From contig NC_092344.1 in the NCBI RefSeq assembly GCF_963676685.1, forward strand, positions 83,328,001 to 83,392,000: a stretch of 64,000 bases of DNA, read 5' to 3'. The notes under the pieces are model-generated. The model worked only from the letters and a program-made list of their open reading frames with translations, did no database searches and was not told where the DNA came from. The translations under genes and the position numbers were made by a program. Source of the DNA: Mytilus edulis (Eukaryota). Shown piece by piece: positions 14,955 through 38,099 of this stretch (its first letter is position 1; every line of letters starts with the position of its first letter).

Positions 14955-15833
14955 TTATAAGATAGAACACCATCCATCCGATTGTTGGCGCTTCATATCA
15001 TTACGAATGTTTTCTATTTCATTCATAATTTTATTCTCTCTTTGTTGATATTCCTTCCGCAACTCTGCATCTGTTTCGTTTCGTATTCTTTGTTGCAATG
15101 CAAGCCTTTCTCGCTCTTTTTTTGCCTTCTCTTCTGCAATTTTATCCTGGAGAATTTTCTCTGCCTTCCTGTAATCATCATTGGTATAATGAGATCCTCC
15201 ATTATCCTTGACCATTCTCTCAATAAGATTTAGTAACCTTTTGACTTGTTCATCCGCTTCATTGCCTTTTAGTGTATTATCAAATGCAATGTATCGATTG
15301 TTACATTTTTTAAGAAAATTCCTTGGACATTCTGTCAGATCGTTTATAAATTCGTCAATATTTTCGACATCGTGATCTATATCTTCCCTGTCACGTTTCC
15401 AGTCATCGAGCCTAGTAAACAGGACTATAACATACCGCACCAATGTTTCACCGAAATGTTCTACAAAGTGATTGACAGTAGCAACATCTTCTTTAGTAAA
15501 CCGCCCAATTGGCACACATAAGATGAAGGCATGGGGACCCGGCGTTGTTAGAGAAATAAAACCTTCTATTGCACGTTGAGTGTCATCATTTTCTTTCCCT
15601 GTATCAAATACTCCTGGCGTATCCACAATGTTTAAAGTTCTTCCAAATCTCTTCGCCTCCCCTAAATCGCATATTTTTGTCAATGACTGACTACTGCATG
15701 CGAATTTAAATTCTTTCTTTCCTAAAATTGTGTTTCCTGTTTTGCTTTTTCCATTACCTGTCTTTCCAAGTAAAACTATACGCATTTCATCTTTTGGTGA
15801 TAAGTGCACGTTTTCAAAAGGTAGATGTGCCAT
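14955..15833 (-). CDS. GIMAP/AIG1-family GTPase (GTPase IMAP family member-like), 292 aa, C-terminal CaaX CSIL
   Basis: G1 GKTGNGKS, G2 SLT, G3 DTPG, PGPHA box, G4 TRLD and FDN, followed by a coiled-coil tail. A splice acceptor (tttcag at 15851) lies just upstream of the ATG at 15833, so the 68-aa N-terminal extension of the called ORF is mostly intronic. Confidence 0.93.
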   Translation of the reverse strand: MAHLPFENVHLSPKDEMRIVLLGKTGNGKSKTGNTILGKKEFKFACSSQSLTKICDLGEAKRFGRTLNIVDTPGVFDTGKENDDTQRAIEGFISLTTPGPHAFILCVPIGRFTKEDVATVNHFVEHFGETLVRYVIVLFTRLDDWKRDREDIDHDVENIDEFINDLTECPRNFLKKCNNRYIAFDNTLKGNEADEQVKRLLNLIERMVKDNGGSHYTNDDYRKAEKILQDKIAEEKAKKERERLALQQRIRNETDAELRKEYQQRENKIMNEIENIRNDMKRQQSDGWCSIL

Positions 15834-16072
15834 TTTAAATATCTCTATATCTGAAATGGAATATAAAGAAATAAGAAATAATGTAACAACTAGATAATTT
15901 GCAGAAATGGTACCATAGATATAAACATAAGGAGCTGTGGCATGACTTCCAATTAAACAACTGTCCACAATAGGATGTAGACAACTATATAACACCATAC
16001 GATCAGTCTTCAACAATAAGTAAAACCCATACCTCATATTAACCTTTAAAAGAACCCGTTGTGATAAATGTG

Positions 16073-16837
16073 ATTATCATATACTTAGACTAAATAAAAT
16101 ATAAATTTTACCGTATGATAATAGCCTTAAATTGACGTAAATTCCATATTTTTCGAATTGGTGCTTAGCGGGCTGATATGAAAAGTTTATCACATGCTTT
16201 GATTGTTATCACATGCCTTTCCGTAACGTTATCACATGGCATTCCGGTAATACTCGGTCAATTAAAAAAATACACCTCAATGCTACGTTTTCAGTGAAAA
16301 ACATTAGAAAGTAGTGTACAAAACAATTACTTGAATACTGGAAAGTATATAGATTAAAAAAATAAAATAATAATAATAAATAATTAAAAAAAAACAACAA
16401 ACCTACTATTTAATAAATACATTTTTTTAAGTTTTTCTGAAACATTATTTAGAAAGTTTCTTTAAAAAGTTGATTTTTCCAAACAATGATCATTCTGTAT
16501 ATTGTTAAATTATTTTTTTGTCGATTCGTCCATATTATTTTTTTCTCTCTCTCTCTGTTGAGGCATATGATAGAAAGGTATCAATTTTTGGGTCCGACGG
16601 CCGTGAACTTTTTTACTCTTTAAACCTCGGGAACCACGTAAAAGGATCAATAAATGAATCTGTTATTTTTCTCTACTGTTGAAGCATATGACAAAAAGAT
16701 CATAACATGTCATTTTTCATATCGCATGTATTATCAGCCCTCGGTCAATATCAGCCCTCGAGCCATGCGGCTCTTGGGCTGATATTGAACCTAGGGCTGA
16801 TAATACATGCGATATGAAAAATGCCATGTAATAATCT
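16073..16837. mobile_element. Long-hairpin non-autonomous element
   Basis: About 140-bp near-perfect palindrome at 16697-16837 (catttttcatatcgcatgtattatcagccct ... agggctgataatacatgcgatatgaaaaatg) with a GC-rich loop. The left boundary is uncertain. Confidence 0.6.
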
Positions 16838-17059
16838 GATAATATCCCAAACGATAAATCTTATTGCATAATAAGAATTTATGCTGAGACTACAACCACT
16901 GAAGTACAGCTTCAGGATTGGGTCTAAAAATAAGATCAAACTACCAAAATTAAATGGGAAAGGTTCGACTCATCAAATGAGCACAAAGGACACACAAAAA
17001 ACTAAAAAAATATAAAAATCTCATGATGCAGATCTGAATCTACTCGCATCTACGAGAAA

Positions 17060-17290
17060 AGACGGGCGAAAGAGACCAGATGGTCATTCAAACTAATACA
17101 TCGAAAATAAACTGACAACACCACGGCTAAAAAAAAGAAAAGACAAACAGACAAACAATCAGTTCACAAAACACAACGTAGAACACTAAAGACTAAGCAA
17201 CACGAACCCCACCAAAACTATGAGTGATCTTAGGTGCTCCGGAAGGGTAAGCAGATTATGCTCCACATGTGGCAGCCGTCGTGTTGCTCG
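17060..17290 (+). repeat. Dispersed repeat family (gacaaacagacaaacaa...ggtgctccggaagggtaagcag); relatives at 25697-25862, 33135-33310 (-) and 54035-54245
   Basis: Shared motifs among four loci in the window. Confidence 0.75.
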
Positions 17291-19549
17291 TGAAAGTACA
17301 AACTTGGAAGTGATTTCAAGCCAATAGTTTCAACTCTTTTAAATCATGTTTCAAAGATAAAAATTTTAATCAGTCAAAATCAGAATTGTATGCTTAATTC
17401 ATTCACAGCCTTTATAAATAGACTCAGTGCGATCTCGAGAGTGCGATATAGATCTGGGCATACCGTTATGGTTTTTATACAGTCAGGTTTAAACATTCGT
17501 AATTAATATTTTATAATAACCTTATATATATAATGATGGAGCTAAAAATGATACCATAATTCACAAATTCAACGTCAAATCAACTGTTTGCAGTAAAAAG
17601 TATTTTGCATTAAAACCAAAATATATTTTCGTTAATAAAAAGACTTACCTCTGTATAATACGTTTTTTAAACTATTATTCAGGACTTTTTATACTCTCAG
17701 CCTAACTTTATACTTCTATAGACCTGGATTAAAGTATAAACAAACTGCATTTAAATATCAAATGTAGTTGGAATTTGCATTCGTATTTTTAACCAGTGAT
17801 TTAGAAATGCTATATTTAAACTTTTTATTTTTAGCCAAATTGGAAAAAAAAAAAATTTGCTAAAAATAACATATTGATTTTTCCATGTCTGATTTTAGGC
17901 AATACATTTTCCAAAAGTCTCCACGTTATAGCTCTTTAACACTTTCGGTCTTTCAAAGTTTGTACATCCTTGGCTTTCAAATATTCATAAAAACAATTGA
18001 TTTTATCTTTTTGCGAATACCATTATATTAATTACAACTATGTAATTTGTCAAGCAGTTCTTTAAAAAACGAATATCCAGGATTCTTTTATAGCAAAAAG
18101 TTAATTAACAAACATACCGATTTCAAAGGAAAATTCAAAACGGAAAGTTCTTAAGCAAGTGGCAAAATCAAAAGCTCAAACTCATCAAACGAATTGTAAA
18201 CAACTGTTGTATTCATCTTCCCGAAGTTAAAATCTTTCGGATGCATGAAATTTATAATGTGTTCTTTTCTCTTTTTTTTACAGCTGTGGGTCGATAACCT
18301 GCCGGTGGACGGGTTATCGGTACCCGAGGGATTAATCAGCTCAGCAGTCAGTACTTTGACTTCAGTATTCACATTATGTTTAACAAAACTTTTCAAAATT
18401 GTCCGTTAATAAATTTTGAAATTATAAAGAAATAAAGGTTTCAACTCCTTAGGCTAAATTAATCTAAGAATGATTTCGGCATTTTTTCATGTCCTTTTTA
18501 GTCAAATAGTTCTTCAACTGTTTCAGTTATTATACATATTATTGACTTTCAAATGTTTGGTTTAAAACCTCCCAGATGAAAGTAAATACAGAAATTAAGC
18601 GCTTCGAACACAAGATTTATACCGTGTTCTTTTTATTATTTGCTGATTATACATGTATGTTCGGTAACGTTATAGGAAAAAATGTTATTTGTATTGTGTG
18701 CACATTCATTTTCATTTAATTCAAAAATGTGCATGGTTTCTTTTGCCAACGAAAAACAGACACTGTCATTGCATATACACCCGAGTTCAGTGTGTTTAGA
18801 TTTTGAGGTGTTGTATGATGTATCAAACACAGGTTATATACTACAGTGTCCCTAATTCTATACATATTTTTTTCTCTCAATTGTGATCTTTTGATATTGA
18901 AAAGTCGGCTTGTCAATAATCAATATCAGAGTGTCTAAACATAAGAAATAGTGAACTTATATGATACATCAATATGTAACTTTTCATTATAGCATGGTTT
19001 GTTATCATGGAACCTTTCATTAGATACCATGTCATTTAGTATAGTTATATGTAATGCTATAGGTCTTAACCATTTATTGTTTAATGAGTTTGTGCCAATA
19101 AAATTATTTGTATTTTTGTATTGTATTTCATGCAAAAAATAGTGTTTTTTATACATGCTAAAAATATTACAATGAATGTATATAAAAAATTTTTTTGTAG
19201 TATTACCACTTGATATATAAAAAAAAAAGGCCATTCTTTTGATTTTAATATCTTGTTTTTATATTTGTCATACGAAATATGTAAATATCTATTGGTTATC
19301 TTTCGGCTGTTTTCTGTCCTTTGGTCGGATGTTGTCTCTTTGACACATTCCCCATTTCCATTCTCAATTTTGTATGAAACGATTTTCTTGTTAATATTAT
19401 TTTATTAGGATGATTGAATCAATGCCTGCATATAAACTTTCAAAGTGAAATAGCAAAAATACCAAACTCCGAGAAATATTCAAAACGAAAAGTCTGTAGT
19501 CATGTGGCAAAATCAAAAGCACAAACACGTCTTGTATGCTCCATTTTTT

Positions 19550-20207
19550 TAAAACTTTATAGTAACGATGAGCAACATTGGTAGATGCGTAATTTGGCGT
19601 TGGAATTTCAAAAATGTCTGTCGTTACCATGGAAACAATGCATAAGTGTAAAAATGCTCTAAAACTTTAGGGTTTGGTGAATAATTTTGGTATGCTTTAA
19701 CTTAAAATCATCAACCTTTTACACAATATAGATGTCCACTAAAAACAGGGTCTGAATGATTTTGACAATCATTAGAACTTTTCTGTTACAATGGATACAG
19801 GAGCAAAAATTCCAAAAAATTCATAATGCTTCAAACTTAATGAAACTTGATGTGATTGTTGACAGGCAAGTCTAGAACAGACTTTTGAAATTGGAATTTC
19901 CAAAATGGCCACCTTTGCCATGGAAACTGCAAAAATATCAAAAACTTTCAAATGCTTTGAACATAATGAAACTTGATATTATTGTTAACTGGCATGTATA
20001 AATGAGACTTTTGACTTTGAAATTGTCAAAATGGCTCCTGTTGCCATGGAAACCACAAAAATGTAATAATTTTTAAAATGCTCTGAATGTATTGAAAATT
20101 TACAGAAAGATCTATAGACATGCAAATATGTGCATTCACTGTTTAAAATTTTTGAAATGGCTGCCGCTTAGTGACATTCGCTATTGCTTGTAATGGCAAT
20201 TCTAGTT
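19550..20207. repeat. Degenerate internal tandem repeats of about 125-160 bp, probably a Helentron-associated (HINE-like) element
   Basis: Recurring ggaatttc.aaaatgg...gttgccatggaaac units at about 19602, 19780, 19893 and 20019. Confidence 0.55.
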
Positions 20208-21267
20208 ACTATTTACCTTTCAATGTACATTCTTGCATCACGATTTTGAAAATATTAACTTAAAGGATTTTCTTTAAAAAGAAAATTCGCGTACACTTGT
20301 GATATAGTAAAACTTAGCCAAACATATTGACTTTATAGAAATAATCTCTCAAAAATCAACCTGTACTATGATGTTGATATCTATATAAGTTATATCGTAC
20401 AAATATTTAATGTACTAAATATATCAGTAAACTTGATGTTTGATAAGGAAAAGGTTGAAACGACGGTAGTAATTGCCTATCTTTTTACCTTTCGACATAT
20501 GAAAATATTGAAATATGATGAAGAAAAGTCATAAATTTTATCTCGTTTGAGACAGACCTATATCTGTTACGAATCGCTAGCATTTCATAATAATACCAGT
20601 TTCATAATAATATTACAGAATCATACAATGTAATTTTCCATATTCTATAAATAGACACTTTGCATTCCATTTAAAATAAATATTATTGGAATGAAAATCC
20701 CACAGAGCGTCAGTATATATCCAGACCTTAAATACTAACTTGGATATTTAAACACGTTGACTTCACGGAGGTGTTAAACTATACTGTAGGTATGTTTTTA
20801 TATGTTAAATAATTATATAAAAAATACTCCTGCTATAAGATATCGGATCATTATGGTTAGGTTTTAAATGGCAAACAATATATATTCAATACATGCAGAA
20901 TAAATTTGCAATGTTTCCTTATTTAAATTCTCGCTACGTTTCTTCAAGCTATCTAAAATGTATAATGCGCATCTTTCACCGTGTTTTATTTTTAATTAAT
21001 TATTATTATGGAATTGTTTGCTTATACAATATTAGTTCTGCAGACCCCAGCAGGACTAAACAAATACTACTACTAGTTGTATATAGTCGTTAGCTTGTAA
21101 AAGTACATCTTCGCTTTCAAAGGGTCACTATCAAGGGACTTCATCGTCAACTTTGACTAGTAAATATGGTAGAAGTAACACAACAAAACCATATACGTAT
21201 GTGAGGGGTAAATATTGGTTATTTCACTGTATGGAGTGAGATACTTGCTTTTTTCCAGAATATATGT

Positions 21268-21656
21268 ATAGATTATATATTAACATGCCCTTTTCCATAT
21301 TGGCCCTGGTTTCATCCCGAGACTCCAATATCGGCCTTGAGGCTTTAGCCGAGCACCGATATAGGTTGAGGAATGATACCAGGGCCAATATGGAAAAGAC
21401 ATGTTATAATCTATTTATCACATAATTAGGTTCTGCAGAGAAGAGGGGAAAACATCCAAATATAATAATTTAATGAAGCATCACAGGTTAAAAACTTAAA
21501 AACATTTTATCACAAAAGTGTCGTTAAGGACGCAATGATGTCACGTCATTTAGAATCAGGGCACAATAACCAATAACCTCTTTTTTGTCCCGGGCAATTT
21601 TGAGGTTATTGCATATTCAAAACCCCAACGTATTCGTTACAAATATGTGATAAATA
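21268..21656. mobile_element. Long-hairpin non-autonomous element (A-A'-B...B' architecture)
   Basis: Hairpin at 21268-21414 (ttttccatattggccctggt / accagggccaatatggaaaa) plus a second inverted pair tatttatcacata (21412-21424) / tatgtgataaata (21644-21656). Confidence 0.7.
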
Positions 21657-21746
21657 CAATTTATTGAAACAACAGGCTTGTAGAGTTAAGAAACTTTGTG
21701 ATGAGCTACATGTTTCACCTATGATTTTAACGTATACCACATGTAA

Positions 21747-21903
21747 GGCCACAATTAAAAATATTTCAGTTTACCCAAGCCCGACCCATGATGGGTCCGA
21801 AAAATCCGAAAAAAAATCTTAAAACAAACGTAAAAAAAAGAGTCGTCGGGTTTATTTTGGGTCGTTCGCGTTTGGGCAAACATACAATCTTTTTATTTTG
21901 GCC
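21747..21903. mobile_element. Tourist/PIF-Harbinger-like MITE (157 bp)
   Basis: TIR ggccacaattaaaa / ttttattttggcc, flanked by TAA on both sides. Confidence 0.65.
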
Positions 21904-22019
21904 TAAGGCATTTTCGCATTTATTCGTGGCGCACAGTAAATTAAAAATAGAAAAAGAAAACAATCGTGCTACATATACTCCTTTAAAAAAAACCACTAAC
22001 AATAAAACGGTCTGATAAA

Positions 22020-22051
<32 letters not shown>

Positions 22052-22129
22052 TGATCAGAATTGTAGACGAATAATTTACCCCACATTGCAAAAATAATTA
22101 TATATAATTTTTTATGTTTAAACAGGAAA

Positions 22130-22993
22130 ATGACAAATTTCAGTAAATTCAGATTGGTTCTGATAGGCAAAACAGGAAATGGAAAAAGCAAAACTGGAAA
22201 TACTGTAATAGGTCAACAATTGTTCAACTCAAAATGTCAAAGCGGTTCTGTCACAATAAAATGTCAGAAAGAAAACACTTATAGATTTGGAAAAGAAATC
22301 AGCATAGTTGACACACCAGGACTATTCGATACCAGAACAGATAATGCGAATGTACTTTCCGAAATTAAAAATTGCATATCTCTTACTCTACCAGGGCCGC
22401 ATGCGATTATATTATGTGTTCCTATAACTCGGTTTACACAAGAAGACATACAAACTGTTGACTTTTTCATCAAACATTTTGGAAAGCAGTTGATGAAATA
22501 TGTCATCGTACTATTTACGCATTTTGATGACTGGAAACGCGACAACGAAGATGATCCACAAGCATGTCAAAGTATAAATGGATTTATCAGCTCGTTGTCA
22601 ACTGAACTGAAGTCATTCCTTGTACAATGTAATAACCGATACATCGCCTTTGACAATACTCTCAAAGGGCCCTCTGCAGATCAACAAGTAAAGGATCTGA
22701 TTGCTTTAGTCGAACGCACTGTAAGGGAAAACGGAGGAACTCAATATACTAACTCCGATTATGAAAAGGCAGAAAAGAAATTGAAAGAAGAGGAAGAAAA
22801 CAGACGAAAACAAGAAGAAAGAGACAGACAAATGAGGGAAGAAAATATAAGAAGGAAAAGGGAAGAAGAATTGAAGCCTGAACTCGAAGTAACAATTCAA
22901 AATTTACAAGCTCAGAAACTTCAAGCTCAAGCACAAGCAGCTGATATGGCTTCCCCAGGATGTCGTCGCAGAAACGATTGTTCAATTCAATAG
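22130..22993 (+). CDS. GIMAP/AIG1-family GTPase, 287 aa, C-terminal CaaX CSIQ
   Basis: GKTGNGKS, SVT, DTPG, PGPHA, THFD and FDN motifs with an E/R/K-rich coiled coil. Acceptor aacag ends at 22125, just before the ATG. Confidence 0.93.
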   Translation: MTNFSKFRLVLIGKTGNGKSKTGNTVIGQQLFNSKCQSGSVTIKCQKENTYRFGKEISIVDTPGLFDTRTDNANVLSEIKNCISLTLPGPHAIILCVPITRFTQEDIQTVDFFIKHFGKQLMKYVIVLFTHFDDWKRDNEDDPQACQSINGFISSLSTELKSFLVQCNNRYIAFDNTLKGPSADQQVKDLIALVERTVRENGGTQYTNSDYEKAEKKLKEEEENRRKQEERDRQMREENIRRKREEELKPELEVTIQNLQAQKLQAQAQAADMASPGCRRRNDCSIQ

Positions 22994-25900
22994 ATCTATC
23001 TAAATATTGCTAGCACAATTAGAATGAATAAAACTCTATATTTGTAAACAACAGAATACAGATGTATAATTAAAAAAATTAGAAAACGCATACTTGTAAG
23101 AAAAATCAGTTTATTTTACTCAATTTTCATTTAGAAGATGTCTTGCTAAACATTTTTTAGTAGTATGTGTCATGAAAATATTATGGTGACACATTTTGAG
23201 AACATGTTTTAGTAAAATGGTTAATCGTAATTTTTCTTATTTATCATTTCATGATTATAGAGAATAAAGGTAAGGAATAATAAGAGACTTAATCCTGAAA
23301 TAATCAAAGCTGCAAAAACCGCTTTCGATTTTTCCTTGTGATATAGTTAAACAAAATATGGATTAATAACTGATTTTTTTTTGTAATTGGAGTCTTTGAC
23401 AGATTTATTCATATGTTTGTTCGAATATTCAAATCATCTGTGTCTTTTTACACACTTTCAAATTATTGTCACGTTGACAAATTATGTCTTTTTGTGCTGC
23501 TAACCAAATTCTGCCAATATACAAGTTGGAGTTTTAGACACCAATATAACAAGGTATCACCCAACATTTTATTAAGAAAAAGACTGCACAAAGTCAGGAA
23601 TATGCCAGTTCTTTTCCATTCGTTCCGTTGTTTGATTTAGTTGAACGTTTGATTTGGTAGGACTTTCCGTTTTTCTAATTAACCTTGCAAAATTGGAGTT
23701 CGGTTTATTTTTGGTAAAACATCTTTAAAAGCTCAGATGTTTCACTTCGTCATTTAATAAGCTGTAGAAGATTAAGGTTTTTGAATTTAAACTTTGTCAT
23801 ACAATGACAAAAAAATCTATTTTTTCACATTATATGCATGCATGTAAATGTTCCCCTCTTTAAAACATAAGTGCAAGATAAGGGACTTATTCGCCAAAAA
23901 AGAAATGAATACATACCAAAAGTTCATAAGTGAAACTTTAATGAGTCCTAGTTAGAATTTTTACAGTATAGAATTAAAATATGAAAAATCTCTGCCCTTA
24001 ATAGTCAGAGGAAAATCTCGTTTCCTATTAACATTTATAATTAAGGAGATGTGGTATGATTTCCGATGAGACAATTACCAACCAGAGTTCAAATGAAGTG
24101 GATATAAGCAATAAATAAAGGCAACAGTAGTATACCGCTGTTCAAAACTCATAAATCCAGGGACAAAAAACAAAATCGGGGTAACAAACTAAAACCGAGG
24201 GAAACGCATTAAATATAAGAGGAGAACAACGACATAACACCGAAACGTAACGTAACAATAATAGGCAATCGTATGACCTATCATTGATAAAAAAAAAATC
24301 CATACCATATAGTCAGCTATAAAAGACTCTGCAATGAAAAATGTTAAACCATTCAAATAAAAAGACAATCCGCAAAATTTATAACAAAACAATTTACTAC
24401 AGAATCTTGTCTGTGGACAGTCACAGGAAGAATATGGCGGGTTGAACATCTTTGTGAACGCTCACTCCTCTAACGTGGGACAGTGAGGTAACAGCAAAGT
24501 ATATGGAGAATTGTAAACATCAGTTGCAATTGGTTCAACTAAACATAACAGTACGAGGCACAACACAACTGACATAAAAATTATAGAAACAAAGCAGCAA
24601 AATACGAGAAATTGCAGCTAGTTCAAATGCTATTTCAACAAATACATAAATCTTGTTCTCTCAAGCTCAAATATGAATCAATATATATCAAACGGAATTA
24701 GTGCAAAAACGTCATAAACAGCCTGAGAAAAGCATAACCTTATGTGTTATGCCAATCTTTTTTTAACCAAATTTTGTATCTATAAAATAGTTTGGTTATG
24801 GTTTCAATTAATTTATGGTTACGAAATCCCTACCTTAATAATTCATCAGTTATAGATTAATCAAGTTCGCTGAAATTTTAAATGCGACTATAAAAGACGC
24901 TGGCATAGGGAACAAGTTGCGAAATATACACAACGTTCGTTACTATCGACTCCAACTTGACCTGCCAGTAGCCACTCTTGAAATCTAAAGTTGTAATGCA
25001 AGTAAACGCTATTCTTAGAGGCTAGTACGTAATCAAGCAGAGCTGAAGGAAAAGAAATGCGTGGGTGTACCTCATTGAGTTTTCTAAAGTCTACTCATAT
25101 CCTGTTTGAACTACTACTAAAGGTAATGACCATGTTGACCTTTCAATGGCACCATTTCATAGCATGTCTTCTCGTGCCCCATCGATCACTTTTCTTTTGC
25201 CCAATGGTAACGGATGTGACCTGTTTTTGTGGTGTGTTGTCAATTTGGGAAGTCCATAATCACATGGCAAAATCAAATAACAAAACACATTAAAAACGAA
25301 GGGACAAGAACTGTCATATTCCTGACTTGGTACATGCATTTTCAAATATAGAAAATGGTGGATTAAACCTGGTTTTATAGCGCTAACCCTCTCACTTTGA
25401 TAACAGTCTCGTCAAATTCCGTTATATTTACAATGATGCGTTAACTAAACAGTCACAATTAATAAAATAGTCAAAATATGGGTACAGCAGTCCAAAGTCA
25501 TAAATCGATTGAGCGAAATCAAATCCGGGTTACAAACTAAACAAATATTTTCATTACCCTTTGGATATACCCTGCATTACGATTATTTGACTGGATAACC
25601 ATTGGTTAGTTTCTTCACTATGTATCTTATTACATACCCTAGCTTATCTACATATCTTTGGTTTTGTAAACAAGATTTTTATTTTGGGATTTCATGAAGG
25701 AGGGATGAAAGATACAAGAGGGACAGTCAAACTCATAAATCGAAAATAAACAGACAACGCCTGGCTAAAAATGAAAAAGACAAACAGACAAACAGACAAA
25801 CAATAGAACGCATGACACAACATAGAACACAAAAGAATAAACAACACGAACCGCACCATAAACTTTCTCTCCCTCCATCCCCTTTCATCACCTTAAGTTT

Positions 25901-28276
25901 TTTATTAAGATATTTGTGAGATGTTCATATACATTTTTTGGTCGATTGGAAATGTATTTTGGTAATAATGCCAGTTTATTTAGTTTGTTGACATCTTCAT
26001 TTTTTAACGCATATGTAGCATGTGTCATATTTGTCATTTTAAATGGCTTAGTTGACCCCTTCCTAGGCCAAACTATTGTATTCTTTATGTCACAACGCCC
26101 ATCCGGTAACACAAATAATTGTGTATGGTGGAAGTTGTTGGAAATAGCTAGATTTTGGATAATTGTATCATGCTTGTACATCTTAAAGTAACTTTTAAAC
26201 AGTCGGTTCTTTGATTCTAGAGGTTGGTCAAAAGTAAAAGCATGGTTCTTTATAGCTAATGTCATAAAGTACAAGCCCCATTTATGCAACAACAAAAAAG
26301 AACATAAGATCGAAAGTCCAATTATTCAAATATAGCAGTTATATATTAGTTATCTAAAAAAAAGTATATTGTTACAATTAGCATTGTGTGGTACAAAAAG
26401 GTTCTTGAAGTTATAGCTCATACTTCCAAGATTTGTCATCATACATTTTCTAAGTTCAAAATTACGGTATAAAACAAACGTGATGAATTCGAACAAGAAA
26501 CTCTTTGTTCTCAAAATTCAATTGGAAATCAACGCTTTCAACATTCTGTATTGATTTAATTATCAAACAATAGAATTGGTACCGTTGCTGTTTTTAAACT
26601 TTATTGACATTGACGATTTTTTGAAAAGGTACGACATATTTCCCCTGTATTTGTTTAACTTTTAAGGTCAAGATATAAAGGTATTCATGGAAAGATTAAA
26701 TGTTATTCAACACGTTACATGTTGCTGTTGAAGGCTTTTTGATACAAAATTGCAAAATCTAACTGTTTTTGTAAAAAAATTCATTTAAAGACCTCGCTAA
26801 CTTACATGAATTACTAGTAATTTGCATTCCGAAACCATAGTTTACCTCAAAAAGAATTGTGTTTTTGGTTAACGATGTTATATCTGTATTTAGTTTCGGA
26901 TAAACACTCAAAATATCAAAAAGTATGTTTTATACTATTTTGTTGTATTCGTTATCAAGTGATCTGTTTAAAATGAGCCATGATTTTGTCAAAACCTGAG
27001 GGTAAACACATTATGATATGACACTGGGAAGTGAGCGATAAAAGTCGCAAATGTTTTTTTTTCAAATTTTGATTCACTTGGCAAACTCATCGTGTACGTT
27101 TGTATTTAAGTAAGTTTTAGTTTATGATAATTAATCATGCATTTTATCCATTTGAGTACTTCCCGAATGTTATTAATAAGTCCTACGTAAAATTACAAGA
27201 GAGATCTACTTTTCTTCTTCTTTTTTTAGAAAATATACTTTTATGCAAGATTTAAATTTAACCATGATATATTGACTTTCAGGATTTTCCAGAGTCTATA
27301 ATTAAGTACTGGTATTTTTCATTATAGGATTTAAAAAAAATCGTTAATGCCCGCGTCACACTGTCCCGATTTTTATATACGATGGACACCCGAATGCGAA
27401 AATTGTAAGTTCGTACGAAGTTGGTCCCGATCTCGTTAAAATACCAAAAAGTGACCGAAGAAAGTACGATGAATAACGAAGTCTATACGATGGTGCCGAA
27501 ATTATATACGATAGCAAAAGATGGACATACGAAGGTTAACCGAAGACGGGTAATTAAGCTTCATATCTCAGCCGCAGCCTTCACGGTGGATCACGAAGGC
27601 TACACGATGGATTACGAAGGCTACACGATGGACTACGATGATGGCGCGATGGCCATACGATGTCTAAAAGATACGAACAGAATTTCGACAACATATCGTT
27701 TCTGTACAAGTCTGCCATGCATGGCGGGAAATCGATCTTTTTGTCTAATTCTTATAAAACTTAGTTTATTATCCCCTCGCCTACTACATGTAAGTTGCGT
27801 GTATATAAAATTGTTATTGACACTCTAGACCCAAAATGCTCAAAACTTGGTATGGTGTTACTCGTTAAGAATATCTTAAGCGCTATTGACTTCAAAGTTC
27901 AAAGGTCGAGGTGACAGTGGCAGTTGTAATACAAGGCAATATCACCCTTGTGGACACTCTAAAACCAATATGCTTCAAAACATTTTAACCACATTTGGTA
28001 TATTATTCCTCCTTGTAATGATCTGACATTTTGACCAAGGCCAAAGGTCAAGGTCATGCAGATGGACTTGTTTTTTCTCCTTGAAATAGCATAATACACA
28101 GGAATTGGTTGCCCATTTTTTATCTGCTGGTTCTAAAGACAATATTAAAGGTATTTCCAGTTACTGAATGTTTTGGTTGATTTCTAGAAAAATAGTTTAT
28201 GTATCAAATATGCATATTCAATGGGCGCACTACGTTTGCGCGCATTTGGGGATTAAAATGTTTTACGTTCGCGCGC

Positions 28277-29630
28277 AGCTTTTGATTACATTTGCGCGCA
28301 TTCATTTTACAGGTAAACTCAGGTAAAAATATAAATAAAAAATTAAATCAATTATAATTGACTATATTTTTTTTAATTTTCATAATAAATATGACTATCA
28401 ATTATTAATTTGGAAAATATTTCTTAATTCAAATTATATATTTTCATATTAAATTCGAAAACAAATTATAAAGTGATCATTATAAACTCGTATAGCTTAA
28501 GATATACATCTAACTTCATTGCGAATATTTCAGAGTGAAAAGTGTTTCAACGAATAGTGATCGTTTTTAAAATTAGTAAATAATTTAAGTTAGTTTGTAA
28601 AGTTACACCAAGGCACTAACATGGAGTTTCGGCATGTATGCCGACATGTAAAGAAATGAATTTAACAATACTTTAACCTTTACGATTAGGTATGTTTTAG
28701 CATTTTAGAATTTTTATCTTTATATTTTTCTAGAATTTAGTGCTTGTGCATAATAAAACGGACTTATCTTTCTCGAAATCCGACTTTAACCTCATCGTTG
28801 GTGAGCTGGGGACTAACACTAACGGAATGAGAACTTATACTTGTTAAAGGGGCACTAGCTGTCAAATTCATTGTAACCGATTTGACTCAAATTCTCATAT
28901 TTGGTTTATAACAATGTAAAACATTTATCCAAACTATCAAAAGTCTAAAATAAACAGTTTACAGAGCATGGGGTAGATAATATATAGGTTCGTTTCGTGT
29001 GTATTTTAGTCCAGACGCCATCTCATTAACTATCGATTTGACCTCAGATGACCATATAAGCGATGTAAACAAAAATAAAGATACGAATAGATTAAACCAA
29101 CACGTGCAATTGCATTTTTATAGGTCTGTTTGATTTTATTTTATAGATTAAAAATAGATGTTTCTCATTGTTTTTAACCATATAAGAATGATTTTATGTG
29201 CATCGAATTAGTAATCAAATGATTTACCGTAGTTTCACTTTCATTGTTGACATTCTTTTTCTTTAAATAACCAGTACACGTACAATGCATGCGTTGTCAA
29301 TCTCTAGCTAGGGGTTAACTTGAAGTTCACATGAATACCGGTTAGAATGATGATGACGTTTTCACTTGCAAGTGAATCAGTCAAAAATTATGTTTAATCG
29401 CTTATTTCAACAAAATGAAAGGAAATTGATTGCTAAAAGCAAATTATTATTTCATTATTCCAATTTGATTAATGATTGATCTAAAAAAAAAAATCATACT
29501 TTATTTTTTTATATATATCGTAGCTAGTGCCCCTTTAATAATTGACCAAATTATAATCAAATAAGTATTATTACCTGTATTTTACCTGAGTTTACCTGTC
29601 AAAAAAATGCGCGCAATTGTAATCAAAAGC
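28277..29630. mobile_element. MITE-like element with about 54-bp inverted repeats, nested in the outer Harbinger
   Basis: gcttttgattacatttgcgcgcattcattttacaggtaaactcaggtaaaa (28277-28330) is inverted at 29578-29630. True termini are uncertain. Confidence 0.6.
28848..29534. mobile_element. Kolobok-type non-autonomous element or solo LTDR (687 bp)
   Basis: Perfect 13-bp TIR aggggcactagct / agctagtgcccct with an exact TTAA duplication (28844-28847 and 29535-29538). Confidence 0.85.
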
Positions 29631-31032
29631 TTTTTACCATTTTCTGCATGTGTATATACAAATATAGTGTCCATATTTGTCCCCAATATGTTACATACGA
29701 GGGGATGCCACGCTCGGCATTGCCTTGTTTGAACTGTAAAATGTGTGCACTAGTCTGAATAACCACCCATAATTATGCCCATGTTTACTGATCTATCTTA
29801 AAGGTAAGGTAATGGGTTCGTTGATCCCTTTTATTCAAAAAGAGCTCTTTCCAGGAGAATATCATAATAATATAGACAAAAGGAAGGATGTGGGGAAAGC
29901 AACAAATGCGGCAAAATATGACATATAGAAAACAAAATGTTTATGGAGTAAACATTCGTGGGACAACAACTCAGACGATACATAAAAAATCAGAATAATG
30001 AAGAAAAAGTTGGTTTCCCTATACGTGTACCTGCAGTGTTGGTATACGAGGCGCGTTTATGATTTTTATTATGTTATTTGATATGAAAAATTGACAAAAA
30101 ATAATATTTTATTTGTAAAAGTAAATCCTGAGCCTGTAATACCTGCTCTTTTTGTTCCATTTGAATTAATAGAAACAACGCTGTCGCCTTTCTTGTTCTC
30201 ATAGAATCATATGATATGAGGTCCATGTTTTGTGAACGTCTTTCTTAACTGTCGTATTAGACTGACCAGTGCATATCGAGCATGGCATTTTAAATGGATT
30301 TAAGCGCGAAAATTAACTTACATTTAGCTGGATTTATTGCCGTCGTAGTTCCATCTTGTCACCTTCGTACTTTTATTCGATGGCATCACGACGGGATTAC
30401 GAGGTCTTCACGAAGTTGTGTTGCCATCGTAAAACCTTCGGTTAGCTTCGTGATTCATTCGTGTAGACATCGTAATGTCAAAACTGCCCGAAGGAAACGA
30501 TGGAAACACGAATGCAATACGATGTTCAAAGATGCATTCCCGGTGACATTACGATGGTGAGGATGGTGATACGAACTCAATACGAACCATAATACCCCCT
30601 TCACATACACGAATGTTTCTTACGAATGCTAACGAATCACCAAAATTTACAAGATTCGTTAAACTTTAACGAATCTTTTGCGAATAAACCACTTTTACGA
30701 GTGATTTGCGAGTGCTTTACGATTGGTTACGATTTACTAAGAATGAATGCGATGCTTTTACGATAACAGTAGACGATTCATTGCGAATAGATACGAGCAA
30801 TTAACGAATGCATACGAGTGTTTTGCGAGCACAATACGAATGGTAACGATCTGATCCAAGTTTTTACGATTGGTTAACGAATAGTTTACGATAGCCCACG
30901 AACATTTGCGATTGAGTTACGAGTGTTTTACGAATGTTTATTTTTTTTGCAATGGGAAATGCATGCACTCATATAGATAGTAGGCCATACAGTCTCATTT
31001 ATTATCCATGTAAACATTCGGAGTAACAAGAC

Positions 31033-32778
31033 ATGTCTTACGAGAGAAATAAATTATTACTCTTCCATAACTTCCTTCGACTTCTTCTTCCACTGGCACA
31101 GAGGGCAGAGGAAGAAAATCAACAACTGTTTCCTCTTTGTTTTAGGAGGAGGAGGAGGCGGACTCAACGTAGATTTTGGTGCAGGCCATGGCTCATCAGA
31201 AGAACTTTGTTTGGACAATATGACCAACTCCTGCATGAGCTTAACCGGGAAGATGCGTCTGGTTACAGAAACTTTTTAAGAGTTGATGCCGACTTGTTTG
31301 GGGAGATACTTGACAGAATTACCCCTGCAATCAGAAAAAGCTCTACCTCTTTCAGGTAAGTACTTCAATTTTCAAGCAAAATAAAACAGAAATGTACATT
31401 AAGAATAATAGTTAGTTTTATTTTGTATGCTGACTATATCATATGAATATCCGACGGTGCCGAAGGACGAGGCTTGGATTTTCCGCATGATATAGTCAGT
31501 TTAGAAAACCATACTAACTGTTTTTTCAGAAATTCATATCTAAGTAAAAAGGTCAGCAAAACAATCTTTTAAAAAATTTTCCTTAAGCACTTTGCTTCTA
31601 AATAATTCAATTTAATACAAAGTGAACAAAGTACGTGTTAGTAACGCCCCAAATAACGTTCGTATTCATATGGAAGTGGGTATATTAAACTGTCTTGTCT
31701 TTTGTTATTCTAATGTATGACACATTTCCAGTTTACCTTTTATGCGACAAAAAATATTCTTTTAATTGCATTGTAAGTTTAGATAAATATTTCTCGTTAC
31801 AGGGAACCACTTGAACCAGGACTGAAGTTAGCCGTTACACTCAGACATTTGGCTACCGGTTCCACGTATGCTGATCTTATGTATGCCTTTCGTGTTGCCC
31901 GGAACTCCATATCACTCTTTGTGCCTAAAGTCTGCGAAGCAATTTACTTAGCATACAAAGATGAAGTCATGCCGGATGAGATTACGACGGAAGATTGGAT
32001 GCGTATAGCATCTGACTTTGAAAGAATATGGAACCTCCCACACGCTTGTGGTGCTTTGGATGGGAAGCACATTAGAATAAGAAAACCGCCTAACTCGGGG
32101 TCGTTATTTTTTAACTACAAACATTTCTTCTCTACAGTGATGATGGCTCTAGTTGATGCAGATTATAAGTTTATTTGGCTGAGTGTGGGCTCATACGGAA
32201 GTGCATCTGATAGCCAGATATTTAGGGACTCGGAACTACGACCAATGTTAGAAGATGGAACTTTGGATCTTCCGCCTCCCTCCCCTCTTCCAAATGGTGA
32301 AACAGATATTCCTTATTTTCTTATTGGCGATGACGCATTTCCTCTCCGATCATGGATGATGAAACCCTATTCAAGAAAACGTTTAGACCACGATGAGCGC
32401 ATCTTTAACTATAGGTTGTCCCGTGCACGTAGAATTGTGGAGAATGCTTTTGGCATTCTTGCCATGAGATTTCAGATTTTGATTGGAACTATGCAACAAC
32501 TGCCAGAAACAGTAGATTTAATCGTACTGTCTTGTACTACTCGTCATAACTTACTTCGGATAAGGAAACGTGCTGATCTACAACTGTTTGCTGACGAAGA
32601 AGACAACAATCATAATTTAATAGAGGGACAATGGCGACAAGGTGCGCAACTTACCGACGGAGACCCAGGGTATCAGAGAAATTTTGGTAACGCTGCTGGA
32701 ATTGATCAAAGGAACTATCTTAAAAATTACTTCAACTCGGAAGCAGGCGCCGTAGATTGGCAAGAGAACATGATTTGA
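31033..32778 (+). CDS. Harbinger DDE transposase (HARBI1-like), two exons 31033-31355 and 31803-32778, 432 aa
   Basis: The GT-AG intron joins in frame to give SFREPLEPGLKLAVTLRHLATG. Catalytic-type motifs GALDGKH, IGDDAF and RRIVENAFG are present, with no stops in the spliced frame. Confidence 0.92.
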
Positions 32779-33620
32779 CTGGTTCAGAAACATTGATTGT
32801 TTTGAATGCATCAGTATTGTGTTAATTGATGTAATGTTTAAAAATAAAAATTTAGATATAGATAGGACTATAAAAAATCTCAGAATGAGGTTCTATCATA
32901 ATGAATAATTCACTCCAACTTTGTTTGACATACACTTTATAATACAAATTTGTTGCAATACTAGTACTTGGAATGGTATTTAAGGGATAGAATATGAGTG
33001 AAGACGGGGAATGTGTCAAAGAGGCAACGACCCAACACGCGCAAAAAAGAATAGGTTGAGTTTAAACACAAACTTTGATAAGCATCAATAAATGAGTTTC
33101 AGAATGATTTTGACATTTAAGCTAAACGACGGTTGTCACACTTGAAGCAGGAGCTGCTAACCCTTCCAGGGTACTTGAGTTCACCACATTTTGTTTTTGT
33201 TTGGGGTCCATGTTGCTTTGTTTTTAGTTTTTGTTATGTTGTTATTTGTGTTGCCTGTTGTGTATTTGCCATGGCATTGTCTTCTTTGTGGTTTATGATT
33301 ATTGATTGCTCCTTAGTGTGTTCGAATTTGATTTACAACTAAATGTACATTGAAAAGGGCACAGGCGCCAAGTAATGGCAAAAGATTCCGTTTGCATATT
33401 ACACTTTTCAGCGATGTCATTTTTTATTGGTTTTGTTTGAAAATTTTGGTTCCTAAAATAAACAACATAAACAAATGTGGATTAACCTATTTCTTTTCAT
33501 TCTCAAAAAAAGCTACAAATTTTCTACAATCTACAAATAGTTATACATTTAAAGGTTCTCTATTCAAGATTTTCCTAAATCTTTTCTAAATGAAAATAAA
33601 CAGTCATTCACGTCGAAGAT

Positions 33621-33815
33621 CTATATGAAAGGTGTTTCTGGGTTTATTGTCTCATAAGCATCCGTCAGTACTGATGTTGTATCTGTCGCAGTTGATTCAA
33701 TAGCACTTGGTGTCTGACTTGTAGTGTGAGTTGAGTATACTGTCTGTTGCTGTTGACCCATTAAGATAGGTTGCAAGTTAGTCGGTTGCAGTTCTGCCCA
33801 TTGGTATCGACCATA
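33621..33815 (-). pseudogene. Probable C-terminal remnant of the second (Myb/SANT-type) Harbinger ORF
   Basis: About 64 open codons without an initiating ATG (YGRYQWAELQPTNLQPILMGQQQQTVYSTHTTSQTPS...PETPFI*), Q/T/S-rich, convergent with the transposase and abutting the right subterminal repeats. Confidence 0.4.
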
Positions 33816-35004
33816 TCATTTGTTAAATATTCCTATTTGTAAAACATTCGCAAAGCACTCGCAAAGCAGTCGCAAAGTATTCGTATACATTCGTAAAGCA
33901 ATCGGATATATTCGTAAAGCACTCGCGTGAATTCGTATCAATTCGTTAATCCATCGCAAAGCGATCGTAAACTGCTCGCAACTATTCGTAAATGAATCGT
34001 TAAACATTCTTAAATCAAACTGTTCACGATTTCTTGCGAATGATTTACGAGTTGTTGCGATCGGTTAACGATGCATTAACGAATTGTTGCGAGTGATTTG
34101 CGAGCTCTTTACGAATGAAATGATTCGTGGACATTCGTGTAAAATTTTTGGCATGTCCAAAAATTTCCAAATAGTTTTACGAATCGATACGATTGTCTGC
34201 GAATGTCTACGATTTGTTTAAGAGTGGTTTACGATTGCTTGCGAGTGATTTACGATTGCTTGCGAGTGGTTTACGATTGCTTGCGAATGCTTGCATTTGA
34301 TAAAACAAACAACATTCGTAAGGAATCGTAAGACACATTCGTGTATGTGAAGGGGGTATAAACATCGGACGCACCTTCGGGGATTTTTTAACATGTTAAA
34401 AAATTTAGAACCCTTCCTGAAGTTGTCCCCGAAGGCTAGAAAAAGTGGCCGATGGTTCTACGATGGTTAAAGATGACACTACGAATAGCCCGATCTGGAT
34501 ACGATCAGTCCCGATTTTGAAAATTTCCATAATCGTGTTGCCATCGGCGTAAAAATCGGGACAGTGTGACGCGGGCATAAGAGGCTGCAATACATATTAA
34601 CTTGTCCTCCATAAGAAATTTCGTTTTGGTTAGCGGTGTCCTAATATATTTTTGTAATAGATACTAATAAAAATCAGATATCTGTCAATTTTTTTCGGAC
34701 GTTTATTATGAGGGATCTACTTAGAGATGAGCCATTATATTGTTTAAATACAAATACAAATTATTCAGCTACGGTACTGTGATTTGAAGTAAAGATTTTA
34801 AACTTTTCTACATAAGAAAATGCCTGTAACAAGTAAGAAATATGACAGTTGTGGTACATTCGTCTGATGTGTTTGAGCTTTCGATTTTGTCATTTGGTTA
34901 GGGCATTTCCATGTTTAATTTTCTTCAGAGTTCATTATTTTTGTGATTTTACTTTTCTTTTGAGATGGCCATGGTGTGAAAATCAATGTATGACAGAGAT
35001 ATAA

Positions 35005-35460
35005 ATAAACTCATCATAGATATAAGGATTAAATTTTGTAACTACGCCAGACGCGCGTTTCGTCTACAAAAGACTAATCAGGGACGCTCGAATAAAAGAA
35101 AAGTTATTAAAGCCAAAAAAAATAAAAAGCTGAAGAGCTTTGAGGACCAAAATTCCTAAAAGTTTTGCCATTACAGCTAAGGTAATATATTTCGGCGGTA
35201 GAAAAGCCGGAGTATTTCAAAAATTCAAAAGTTTAGTAAACAGTTAATTTATAAATATGACCATATCAATGATAATTTATGTCAGCAATTGCTGACTACT
35301 TGGCTAGAGATACCCTCATTCAATTAAAACTCCATCAGCGGTAATATCGACCCAGTAGTTGTAAATGAACTTATAACTAGTGCGCGTGTTTTCTACATAA
35401 GACAACATCACAAGACTCATCAGTGCATGGCGCTCGAATTGAAATAGTTGAAAAGCCAAA
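35005..35460 (+). repeat. Dispersed repeat family (aataaactcatcatagata...gacgcgcgtttcgtctacaaaagact); relatives at 42125-42180, 58292-58510 and 14070-14280 (-)
   Basis: Near-identical motifs at several loci in the window. Confidence 0.75.
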
Positions 35461-35799
35461 TCAAAAACACAACTAAAGAATCTAAAGAGCATTGAAATAT
35501 TCCCAAATTAACTATACAGAATTCATAAACAGTCCTTCAAACCGTTTGATTCACTTCAAGTTCATCGTGTATTCAAATAACTAAGCATGCAATATTAACC
35601 CCATTACTTTAAAATTCCCATATGCTATTTAAAGGTCATATGGAATATTGGGATCTACTTTTCTTTCTATCATGGTGAAAGTTTTAAATATAGCCATAAT
35701 TTATTAACTCAGATGGATTTTCTGGATTCTATTAATAAAATAAATTAAAATAATTGATGGGATTCTACTTTCTCTTTGAAGAAAATCCTTAAATATCTG

Positions 35800-35857
35800 T
35801 ATAAATAACGTATGTGTTAAACACTTAGAGGTCATTCAAGGCGTTGCTTTATCAAAG
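35800..35857 (+). promoter_or_regulatory. Candidate core promoter and short non-coding first exon of the third GIMAP gene
   Basis: TATAAATA at 35800, Inr-like TCATTC at 35832 and donor AAG|GTATAG at 35857/35858; matching acceptor tttcag at 36670. Confidence 0.4.
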
Positions 35858-36677
35858 GTATAGTGCATCTTTAAATTATTCATTGAAACTAACTTTCATT
35901 TTTATATATTTAATTAAACTATATAACATCTCATGAAGTAGCATGTAAAAACACACACACACACACACGCATGAATATATTTCGACTCTTCAAAATTCAA
36001 GAGTTTATCCTAAACATGCTAAATGGAGGTAATGTATATGGCTTTCCTAATGCCGTTTCGATTCCGAACATACATCAAGAGACATTTATTGTACAAATCC
36101 GGATATGGTGTACCAATATTTGCACCTTTTGTTTGTGGTAAACCATTTTTTCCGCAAGTTTATTATTTTCTGTTTGGTAATAAATTGATAATTAGGATCC
36201 ATTTTGTTACATTTGGTTTTCTGTTTATTTGGCACCAGCAATGTCAGTAAGCAGTGTTTAAGAACATCTGTTGTTTGACCTGCTAGTCAATGGTATTTGG
36301 AACTATGCCTTTTTTTCTCACTTTTTTTTTCTCATCGAGACAACACTGCCTAGACCACTCATATACATGCATTGAATCACAGCAATTTGCAAAAAAAAAA
36401 AATAACGTCCTTCCAGTAATGTAATACTTAAAAGGGTAAATGGAAACCCAAAACATACAGAACAGTACAGCAAATCACACTGACTCCTGCGAAATAACTG
36501 ACATACTAACAAATACAAACTGCTAACAAAAACATGATTTAGATAGCCTGACTCTATTGATAAAGACTCATACTCTGGGAGGGATAGCTTTACATACGAA
36601 TGTAAAACGATTTTACGTCTTCAGATTTTAACAATCTTAAGTGCTATTAATCTTCCTTTTTTAATTTCAGAGAAGTA

Positions 36678-37562
36678 ATGGCAGAAGCTCCAGAAAACGA
36701 ATTACGAATGGTCCTGATTGGGAAAACTGGAAATGGTAAAAGTAAGACTGGTAACACAATTTTAGGGCAAAAGATATTTCCTTTTGGAAGCGGTGCGATG
36801 TCCCTGACAACTACTTGTCAACTGAGAAATGCACATAGATTTGGCAAAAAGATTAGCTTGGTAGATACCCCAGGAGTGTTTGACAACAGAAATGAAAACG
36901 AAAATGTTCAACAGGAAATAAAGAAGTGCATCTGGCTTACATGTGAAGGCCCGCATGCAATAATTCTATGCGTTCCCATTGGCCGTTTTACAAATGAAGA
37001 TGTGGAGACTGTAAATCATTTCTGTTCCCATTTTGGTGAAAACTTAACAAAGTATGTTATTGTTTTATTCACGCGATTCGACGATTGGAAACGTGATAGG
37101 ACAGAGAACTCTCTTGATCCAGGTATGGAAGGATTCATTGACTCTCTTACGCCCCCCTTGAGAGAATTTTTAAGTAAATGCGGGAATCGTTTCATTGAGT
37201 TTGACAATACCTTGAAGGAAACCAGCGCCGACAGCCAAGTGCAAAGACTCCTAGGGATGGTTGAAAAAATGGTGAGAGAAAATGGAGGTTCACATTACAC
37301 AAATGAAGATTATCAAAAGGCAGAACTAGAACTGCAAAAACAGATACAGGAGAACAAAAAGGAAAAAGAAAAAGAAATACTGAGAATGCAACAGGAAATG
37401 AGAAAAGAAATAGATGATGACCTAAGAAAACAATATAAAGAAAGAGAACAAAAATTAATGCAAGAAATTCAAAATATCCGAGATGAGACAAAAAAGCAAA
37501 ACTGGTTACAAGGCGTGTTAAATGCAGGGATAAGTTTTGTTAGGTCAATTTTCAGATTTTAA
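36678..37562 (+). CDS. GIMAP/AIG1-family GTPase, 294 aa, amphipathic C-terminus, no CaaX
   Basis: GKTGNGKS, SLT, DTPG, EGPHA, TRFD and FDN motifs. Coiled coil alignable with the 14955-15833 paralogue. Ends NWLQGVLNAGISFVRSIFRF. Confidence 0.93.
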   Translation: MAEAPENELRMVLIGKTGNGKSKTGNTILGQKIFPFGSGAMSLTTTCQLRNAHRFGKKISLVDTPGVFDNRNENENVQQEIKKCIWLTCEGPHAIILCVPIGRFTNEDVETVNHFCSHFGENLTKYVIVLFTRFDDWKRDRTENSLDPGMEGFIDSLTPPLREFLSKCGNRFIEFDNTLKETSADSQVQRLLGMVEKMVRENGGSHYTNEDYQKAELELQKQIQENKKEKEKEILRMQQEMRKEIDDDLRKQYKEREQKLMQEIQNIRDETKKQNWLQGVLNAGISFVRSIFRF

Positions 37563-38099
37563 ATTTTATCTAGATTTATACTCCGGAGTATATACTGTCA
37601 GACACGCTTCGAATGAATAACATTCTACATAGCCTTGCATGAAAGACAACTTTGAATCGACTGTTTTAAATGAAATTGTAATTTAATTCATTTGTCTAAC
37701 ATTTTTTTCGATAGCAAACCTAAAAAAAGTATAAGTGTTTAAGAATCTGTATTGCATTTCACTAGATTACTTGTAAACTAGTATAATTTAATATTTGACT
37801 GTTTAATATATAACTTGAAGAACATGTAAGATTATCAAATAAGTTCATGAAATGAGAGTTCACTGATTAAAATGATATTCATATATTAATGTGTTTACTA
37901 ATGTTTGACTGAATCTTCTATCTCATCTCATTCATTGTCACTTCCATACTATGTCGTCTATCTTACAGCGTATCTCAATTCACCAATATCATGGAGGTTT
38001 CTATTCCTGAAACTGTTATCAAAATATTTATGGATGATTGAACATATTTTTTTCTCCTCATTGTTTGTTATAATATTTGATGAAATCAACCTCCAGGAG

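Follow-up and report, generated by a model that had tools for sequence, protein, structure and literature searches.

Three clustered GIMAP genes of Mytilus edulis with distinct, clade-conserved C-terminal tails and predicted membrane anchors

Do closely related GTPases that share a head domain use their different C-terminal ends to reach membranes? This question is raised by a 64,000-nt stretch of the Mytilus edulis genome (NC_092344.1, positions 83,328,001 to 83,392,000; the whole stretch is referred to below as the window), which contains three intact, transcribed genes of the AIG1/GIMAP family, each with its own C-terminal tail. Here we report that genes 1 and 2 end in CaaX boxes predicted to be prenylated, and gene 3 in a candidate membrane-binding amphipathic helix. 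The reading that we favour, with a probability of roughly 0.6, is that the three are old paralogues with a common GTPase head and long helix, whose distinct conserved tails each likely anchor the protein to membranes.

Gene 1 (15833-14955, minus strand, 292 amino acids, aa) and gene 2 (22130-22993, plus strand, 287 aa) are arranged head-to-head, and the GIMAP7-like gene 3 (294 aa) occupies 36678-37562 on the plus strand; each has one coding exon. Gene 1 ends in DGWCSIL, with its stop codon at 14957-14955 on the minus strand, gene 2 in PGCRRRNDCSIQ (22955-22993 including the stop; final residues CRRRNDCSIQ), and gene 3 in NWLQGVLNAGISFVRSIFRF (37500-37562 including the stop). The motif GKTGNGKS (15767-15744 on the minus strand, 22166 and 36720) as well as GPHA, DDWKRD and FDNTLK are present in all three genes, and these motifs were found in the three frames alone. 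At the protein level, gene 1 is 48% identical to gene 2 and 59% identical to gene 3, and all three proteins match the Pfam AIG1 domain with 194-202 bits (cut-off 27), thus confirming the original prediction of three GIMAP paralogues with closely related GTPase domains and different ends. Along with GKTGNGKS, each protein contains DTPG, (G/T)RFT, T(R/H)xDD and FDN, which we take to represent G1, G3, the conserved box with its Arg, G4 of the T-x-x-D type and the G5/IAN motif (F-D/N-N), read alongside an alignment to GIMAP7/4/1; the conserved-box Arg (R103 in gene 3) is unchanged across 49/49 aligned rows. Residues for GTP binding, hydrolysis and GTP-dependent dimerisation are present, and by analogy with the human proteins genes 1-3 may have these activities. 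AlphaFold models of genes 1 and 3 (predicted local distance difference test, pLDDT, 80) adopt the GIMAP fold with a C-terminal helical extension, and the best Foldseek matches, searched with the gene 3 model, were all human GIMAPs. The models place one long helix behind the G domain, predicted to comprise 74-86 residues and to measure about 11-13 nm when extended, with the tail at its tip; the CaaX end of gene 1 is unstructured. The nearest named relatives are Mytilus proteins.

The reality of these ends was assessed on contigs from four public runs, one of which (X5) is recorded as RNA and the others presumed to be RNA, an origin that follows for all four from a spliced joint seen in each. 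Contigs from 4/4 runs cross each of the three stops into the 3' untranslated region (UTR), where no joint is listed; among the joints listed, those at the three genes lie in the 5' UTR only. RNA contigs of gene 1 span 14805-15850, in one piece in X1, X4 and X5 and in two pieces in X2, and a joint at 15850/17649, present in 4/4 runs, connects them to a non-coding first exon (17649..17720, minus strand, 5' end approximate) across a GT-AG intron (17648-15851) with both donor and acceptor read. For gene 2 the contigs reach 23025-23088, and for gene 3 they reach 37659-37858, in each case in 4/4 runs; gene 3 also has a non-coding first exon (35805..35857, plus strand, ends approximate), joined at 35855/36669 in 2/4 runs across a GT-AG intron extending to about 36670. 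Splicing out before the stops, which had been named as the outcome that would undo the idea, is therefore not what these transcripts do, although contigs drop rare forms and minor isoforms could escape detection.

CaaX boxes are defined by a Cys fourth from the true C-terminus, an aliphatic a2 and a permitted X residue, all of which are found in genes 1 and 2 and fail in gene 3. The box of gene 1, CSIL (14958..14969, minus strand), is preceded by Trp, comes without a basic patch and is predicted to be of the geranylgeranyl type, and that of gene 2, CSIQ (22979-22990), forms with its basic patch a unit at 22961..22990 on the plus strand that is predicted to be of the farnesyl type. By the established rules, CSIQ should direct farnesylation and CSIL mainly geranylgeranylation.

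Conservation was examined on a tree of 72 G domains, whose rows within a clade are related to one another and not independent. Genes 1, 2 and 3 fall into three separate clades (support 88/97, 97/100 and 99/95). A CaaX end is present in 17/20 rows of the gene-1 clade (15 with L and 2 with Q, reflecting one L-to-Q switch; the commonest box is CTIL), the three exceptions comprising one row whose end is extended and two that are short or partial; CxxQ is present in 12/14 rows of the gene-2 clade, the other two being short records; and 0/19 rows of the gene-3 clade have a CaaX box. Q is retained together with a basic patch in 12/12 complete gene-2-clade rows and L in 15/17 gene-1-clade boxes, across G-domain divergence down to about 65% identity, while the linker adjoining both boxes varies. 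Between gene 2 and its M. trossulus orthologue, 196/205 positions of the G domain, 58/78 of the stalk and 4/4 of the CaaX box are identical. The same endings are seen in short contigs and in independent proteins of other Mytilus species, all three clades are represented together on a single 4.05-Mb contig of M. coruscus and on a single chromosome of M. trossulus, and the copy number of the gene-1 clade varies among species. A metagenome scan for orthologue DNA returned 14 distant loci, none within these clades, and a CaaX end in 0/4 of the frames shown, some of which are evidently cut by introns. Thus, judging by these alignments, the C-termini are conserved in orthologues as had been proposed, and the three tails are old, stable clade traits that were not recently swapped, contrary to the suggestion that the set diversified by exchanging anchors.

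A Ras-like second signal, either basic patch or nearby Cys, had also been proposed; of these candidates, the basic patch of gene 2 is conserved in its clade. The upstream Cys of gene 2 is found in only 3/12 complete clade members, and gene 1 has neither signal; its tail has a net charge of 0, and the lack of a basic patch makes it unusual within its clade. The net charge of the ten residues before the Cys is +4 to +6 in 11 gene-2 relatives and +2 in the window allele, and RNA contigs of gene 2 contain the variants S275P, P276R and G277R in the patch region.

To what extent are such ends a property of the family? A search of the genome gave at least 134 scored matches, of which 132 are covered by the 130 stretches fetched; 129 of these have a profile match, and in 92 the frame is closed and the domain nearly complete. 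Cys-x-x-x-stop occurs in 39/92 family frames vs 38/863 background frames, and the canonical end C-x-[VILM]-[LMSQFA] in 34/92 vs 7/863. Cys stands at position -4 in these 39 frames, and none of the other last 12 positions holds it more than 4 times; a2 is aliphatic in 36/39, the X residue is L/F in 11, M in 15 and S/Q/N in 13, and 9/37 partial frames also end in Cys-x-x-x. By thresholds set here, an amphipathic helix alone was assigned to 10 of the 92 frames, a transmembrane-like segment alone to 10 and a hybrid with CaaX to 8, and 33 remained unclassified, many of them helix-like just below the threshold. On the family tree, which was built quickly and whose backbone is poorly resolved, CaaX presence has a strong signal (13 changes vs 21-37 in shuffles), and the three X classes required 13 changes vs 14-23; these counts imply that tails changed repeatedly in the history of the family, though not recently in the trio. 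The ends of these frames are genomic stops, the RNA comparison having covered the three window genes, and stops elsewhere in the family could lie within introns. This leaves some room for the explanation that the C-termini are chance endings or artefacts of genomic frames read past splice sites, which is largely refuted by the RNA contigs crossing all three stops and conflicts with both the endings shared by other Mytilus sequences and the excess of canonical ends over background; we consider it highly improbable.

Among individual family members, L011, L013 and L044 carry an amphipathic helix followed by CSIM/CSIL, and L050, L063, L076, L084, L089 and L106 a hydrophobic segment followed by CaaX; such hybrid tails are possible intermediates in tail change. 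L094 ends in KKKWFYFF and its relatives L092/L086 in KKKCVVS and KKSCVIS, an apparent loss of the CaaX box with retention of the basic patch.

Clade conservation, family-wide CaaX enrichment and the ends of bird proteins described below make prenylation likely, and for genes 1 and 2 we predict it with high confidence from their sequences. In a yeast farnesyltransferase screen, HM was 3.5 for CSIL and 4.8 for CSIQ, with the authors' cut-off at 3 (PMC10320760). Human geranylgeranyltransferase-I (GGTase-I) fully geranylgeranylates CTIL, but not CAHQ and CVLS (PMC11152559), and a basic patch added to a GFP-CaaX reporter partially shifts it to the plasma membrane (PMC2998424). The combination of farnesyl and basic patch that GBP1 also has favours membranes that are acidic.

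The third tail is of another kind. The last 20 residues of gene 3 (37500..37559, plus strand) form a predicted amphipathic helix that contains no CaaX box and is not a transmembrane segment, with 10 large hydrophobic residues at 100-280 degrees and 7 polar residues at 300-60 degrees. In a helix-face permutation test, devised post hoc, this segregation gave p 0.0001; it was also found in 10/10 relatives (p <= 0.04 each), down to 8/20 identity in P0016, and in a cat GIMAP7-like protein. The best 19-residue hydropathy was -1.18, -0.28 and 0.84 for genes 1, 2 and 3, respectively, vs a threshold of 1.8 set here for transmembrane segments, and none was thus detected. Gene 3 is colinear with human GIMAP7 over residues 1-282 (E 7e-48), into the start of the tail, and GIMAP7 is also the best structural match of its model (template modelling score, TM, 0.63). 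Of the three membrane-targeting signals in the original prediction, the CSIL and CSIQ boxes stand, and the third tail is a GIMAP7-like amphipathic helix and no lipid signal. We predict that this helix binds membrane, which we rate as somewhat better than an even chance.

The origin of this difference was explored at the DNA level. A derivation of the gene 1 CSIL end from a gene-3-type tail by frameshift was rejected (DNA similarity p 0.058, and p 0.75 with the duplicate L003), and the proximal 3' ends of genes 2 and 3 align weakly (p 0.014-0.021; L003 replicate p 0.085). A relic CaaX box behind the gene 3 stop ('F*IL') is unsupported, because 14/53 non-CaaX frames come equally close or closer to CaaX. 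L003 itself (G000:C1:66719381-66723199) is a second copy of gene 3, at a distance of 16.6 Mb along the chromosome; it encodes a protein about 93% identical and has no matches to genes 1 or 2 alongside.

Taken together, a mechanism may be proposed in which gene 1 would be geranylgeranylated through CSIL, gene 2 would be farnesylated through CSIQ and held on acidic membranes by its basic patch (RRR-ND-CSIQ), and the amphipathic helix of gene 3 would insert into the membrane. GTP-driven head-to-head dimers, possibly mixed, might raise membrane avidity, as suggested by the human GIMAPs, which dimerise on GTP and among which GIMAP7 stimulates GTP hydrolysis by anchored GIMAP2 (PMC8201404), and by guanylate-binding proteins (GBPs), which require both prenylation and dimerisation and whose prenylated members redirect non-prenylated ones (PMC2998424). 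The compartment would then be set jointly by anchor type, second signal and partner, and the trio is predicted, with odds moderately in favour, to occupy at least partly different compartments.

Several observations weigh against this reading, and two alternatives draw on them. For the X residue of the 39 CaaX frames, L/F vs other residues gave 8 changes vs 6-11 in shuffles, and this missing tree signal suits free drift between equivalent anchors as much as adaptive switching. Human farnesyltransferase modifies CaaL boxes too and CSIL lies outside the GGTase-I set (PMC11152559), so the lipid split may be leaky. In addition, GFP went to the Golgi with every isolated GBP CaaX box (PMC2998424); different membranes thus need not follow from L vs Q by itself, and the earlier assumption that they do is not supported. 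The CaaX boxes might accordingly be used with interchangeable anchors, the paralogues sharing membranes and dividing labour by expression or by their G domain or stalk, as the L-to-Q switch within the gene-1 clade and the hybrid tails also suggest. However, such interchangeability does not readily explain the Q with basic patch in every complete gene-2 row, the L in 15/17 gene-1 boxes across deep G-domain divergence, or the strong tree signal of CaaX presence, and we regard it as a serious yet unlikely alternative.

Other contrary observations concern gene 3, whose hydrophobic moment, the test run first, is borderline (0.54, shuffle p 0.052), whose model is weak at the tail (pLDDT 47-62), and whose closest solved relative, GIMAP7, is listed as cytosolic without an anchor (PMC8201404). 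The helix might instead fold back or bind a protein; gene 3 would then be a soluble activator of the GIMAP7 kind, recruited through dimers with its lipid-anchored paralogues. The action of GIMAP7 on GIMAP2 and the redirection of non-prenylated GBPs would fit this role, as would the conservation of gene 3, the highest in the trio (206/208 identical positions in the G domain vs M. trossulus). Its tail, on the other hand, keeps the amphipathic pattern at only 8/20 identity, is rich in Trp/Phe and flanked by basic residues, and has counterparts of unrelated sequence recurring through the family, features that would be typical of contact with lipid over protein; a soluble gene 3 thus appears improbable. 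GIMAP7 is reported to co-localise with GIMAP2 on lipid droplets; a literature search for an amphipathic GIMAP7 tail on lipid droplets found no paper. The preferred reading remains that all three tails anchor to membranes.

The last contrary observation touches on immunity: in the one mussel haemocyte study considered, an unspecified GIMAP fell after injury and did not rise on infection (PMC6401078). An immune role of the trio is borrowed from the family level, and a putative role in cell-autonomous defence or haemocyte survival appears to us about evenly balanced. Enrichment of IMAP GTPases is described for dispensable genes of mussel and for lancelet genes (PMC7653742, PMC12373286). One site resembling those of interferon regulatory factors and interferon-stimulated response elements lies near each gene, with about 0.3 expected each. 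Among listed RNA differences, in which two coded organisms are mixed, 17/19 change amino acids in gene 2 vs 7/21 in gene 3 (p 0.0004); the gene 2 proportion does not exceed what would roughly be expected under neutrality (p 0.15), and its stalk may be under relaxed or diversifying selection. In RNA contigs, this stalk (window 22766-22960) is highly polymorphic, with in-frame insertions, and genes 1 and 3 vary little at the protein level. Four RNA runs without gene 1 words were considered as a case of gene absence and set aside, as they provide no evidence of absence.

Other elements of the window appear to be bystanders or neighbours. A PIF/Harbinger-like DNA transposon (30592..34359, plus strand) lies between genes 2 and 3 as a bystander; its terminal inverted repeats measure 46 nt, and it also carries subterminal repeats and a DDE_Tnp_4 frame (31783-32778). 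Two paralogous frames without introns, 924 and 936 aa long and arranged in tandem (44856-47630 and 49769-52579, plus strand), resemble multi-pass membrane proteins and begin with a signal-like stretch; they have no Pfam match, and an atlas search with the 924-aa protein gave no usable match. Fragments of an RNase H-bearing retroelement (56998-58161, minus strand) and exons of an EF-hand protein gene (61060-63589, plus strand) complete the picture.

How far do CaaX ends extend beyond mussels? Cys-x-x-x ends were found in 15/42 vertebrate matches (bird 7/7, reptile 2/3, fish 6/30, mammal 0/2), a set in which multi-domain proteins, favoured by the search, predominate and which is not a fair sample. 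The seven bird matches (P0066, P0067, P0079-P0081, P0083, P0085) end in CTIL, CPIL or CSIQ, often behind aromatic residues, and turkey has both CTIL and CSIQ proteins. Therefore, the feature is not the invertebrate speciality it was first taken for: bird, reptile and fish matches carry it, and Arabidopsis IAN9 ends in basic residues and CINL. This conserved tail feature is wider than first claimed and belongs to a known family, with a prenyl-type anchoring mode that is probably undescribed in animals. No description of CaaX-bearing animal GIMAPs was found in the titles and abstract openings of papers listed by full-text searches, a scope that leaves out subscription journals and the supplements of the mollusc and IAN9 papers, which could mention the motif. 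A broader possibility, which we put forward tentatively and hold to be rather less than even, is that overlooked prenylation is common in GIMAP/IAN GTPases of molluscs, birds, reptiles, fish and plants and lacking in mammals, and that the tails of the 130-odd mussel copies (geranylgeranyl, farnesyl with basic patch, amphipathic helix, transmembrane, hybrids) work as a combinatorial address code by which GBP-like GTPase assemblies reach different membranes, either those of the host or those that enclose pathogens.

Little is understood of what GIMAPs do, and the current picture derives from mammals, in which the family is stated to carry no motifs for lipid modification. Should prenylation apply to about 40% of mussel GIMAPs and to the bird copies, their localisation could be tested directly by click labelling, by Cys-to-Ser mutants and with inhibitors of prenyltransferases. 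The family would then also be a candidate for a GBP-like branch of cell-autonomous defence in poultry and farmed bivalves. In its small compass, the trio amounts to a natural experiment in tail exchange. The surprise is limited, because CaaX rules, GIMAP expansions and tail-dependent location in plants were already known singly.

Human GIMAP7, GIMAP2 and GIMAP5 (PDB 3ZJC, 2XTP, 6Z3E) share with the mussel proteins the AIG1 domain, the G1-G5 motifs, the conserved-box Arg and the C-terminal helical extension, and the human genes, like those of mussel, are clustered paralogues with differing C-termini. Mammalian GIMAPs, however, are anchored by transmembrane segments or not at all and, as stated in PMC3804274, have no prenylation motifs, whereas mussel genes 1 and 2 have CaaX boxes, and, unlike the transmembrane-anchored GIMAP1/2/3/5 type, genes 1-3 are without a C-terminal transmembrane segment. 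The mollusc AIG/GIMAP families of Biomphalaria, oysters and the mussel pangenome are similarly large, tandem, coiled-coil-bearing and prone to presence/absence variation (PMC7053062, PMC7653742, PMC12373286); in Biomphalaria, the parts scored in the survey were confined to transmembrane and coiled-coil ones, and 'prenyl' and 'lipid' are absent from its main text (PMC7053062). Plant AIG1/IAN proteins provide a partial precedent for CaaX GIMAPs: Arabidopsis IAN9 has a basic stretch and a CINL end and needs a free C-terminus to locate to the plasma membrane, IAN8 is cytoplasmic (bioRxiv 10.1101/277269), and a review counts Arabidopsis AIG1 among prenylated proteins (PMC6866125). The main text of the IAN9 preprint mentions neither CaaX nor prenylation (bioRxiv 10.1101/277269), and this is a plant lineage without a described trio of L, Q and helix. 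An architectural likeness is seen with GBPs, which share a GTPase head, a helical stalk and a CaaX box at its tip, and which include GBP1 (CTIS, basic patch, farnesyl), GBP2 (CNIL) and GBP5 (CVLL, geranylgeranyl), paralogues with both prenyl types and with none being located by anchor and dimerisation (PMC2998424). Coat formation, interferon induction and pathogen targeting are GBP traits, and the mussel likeness is one of architecture. GBPs belong to another GTPase family and are about twice the size, and the mussel proteins match AIG1 and MMR_HSR1 and no GBP family; the proposed parallel with GBPs therefore fits as an analogy of GTPase head, long helix and CaaX box, and not as membership.

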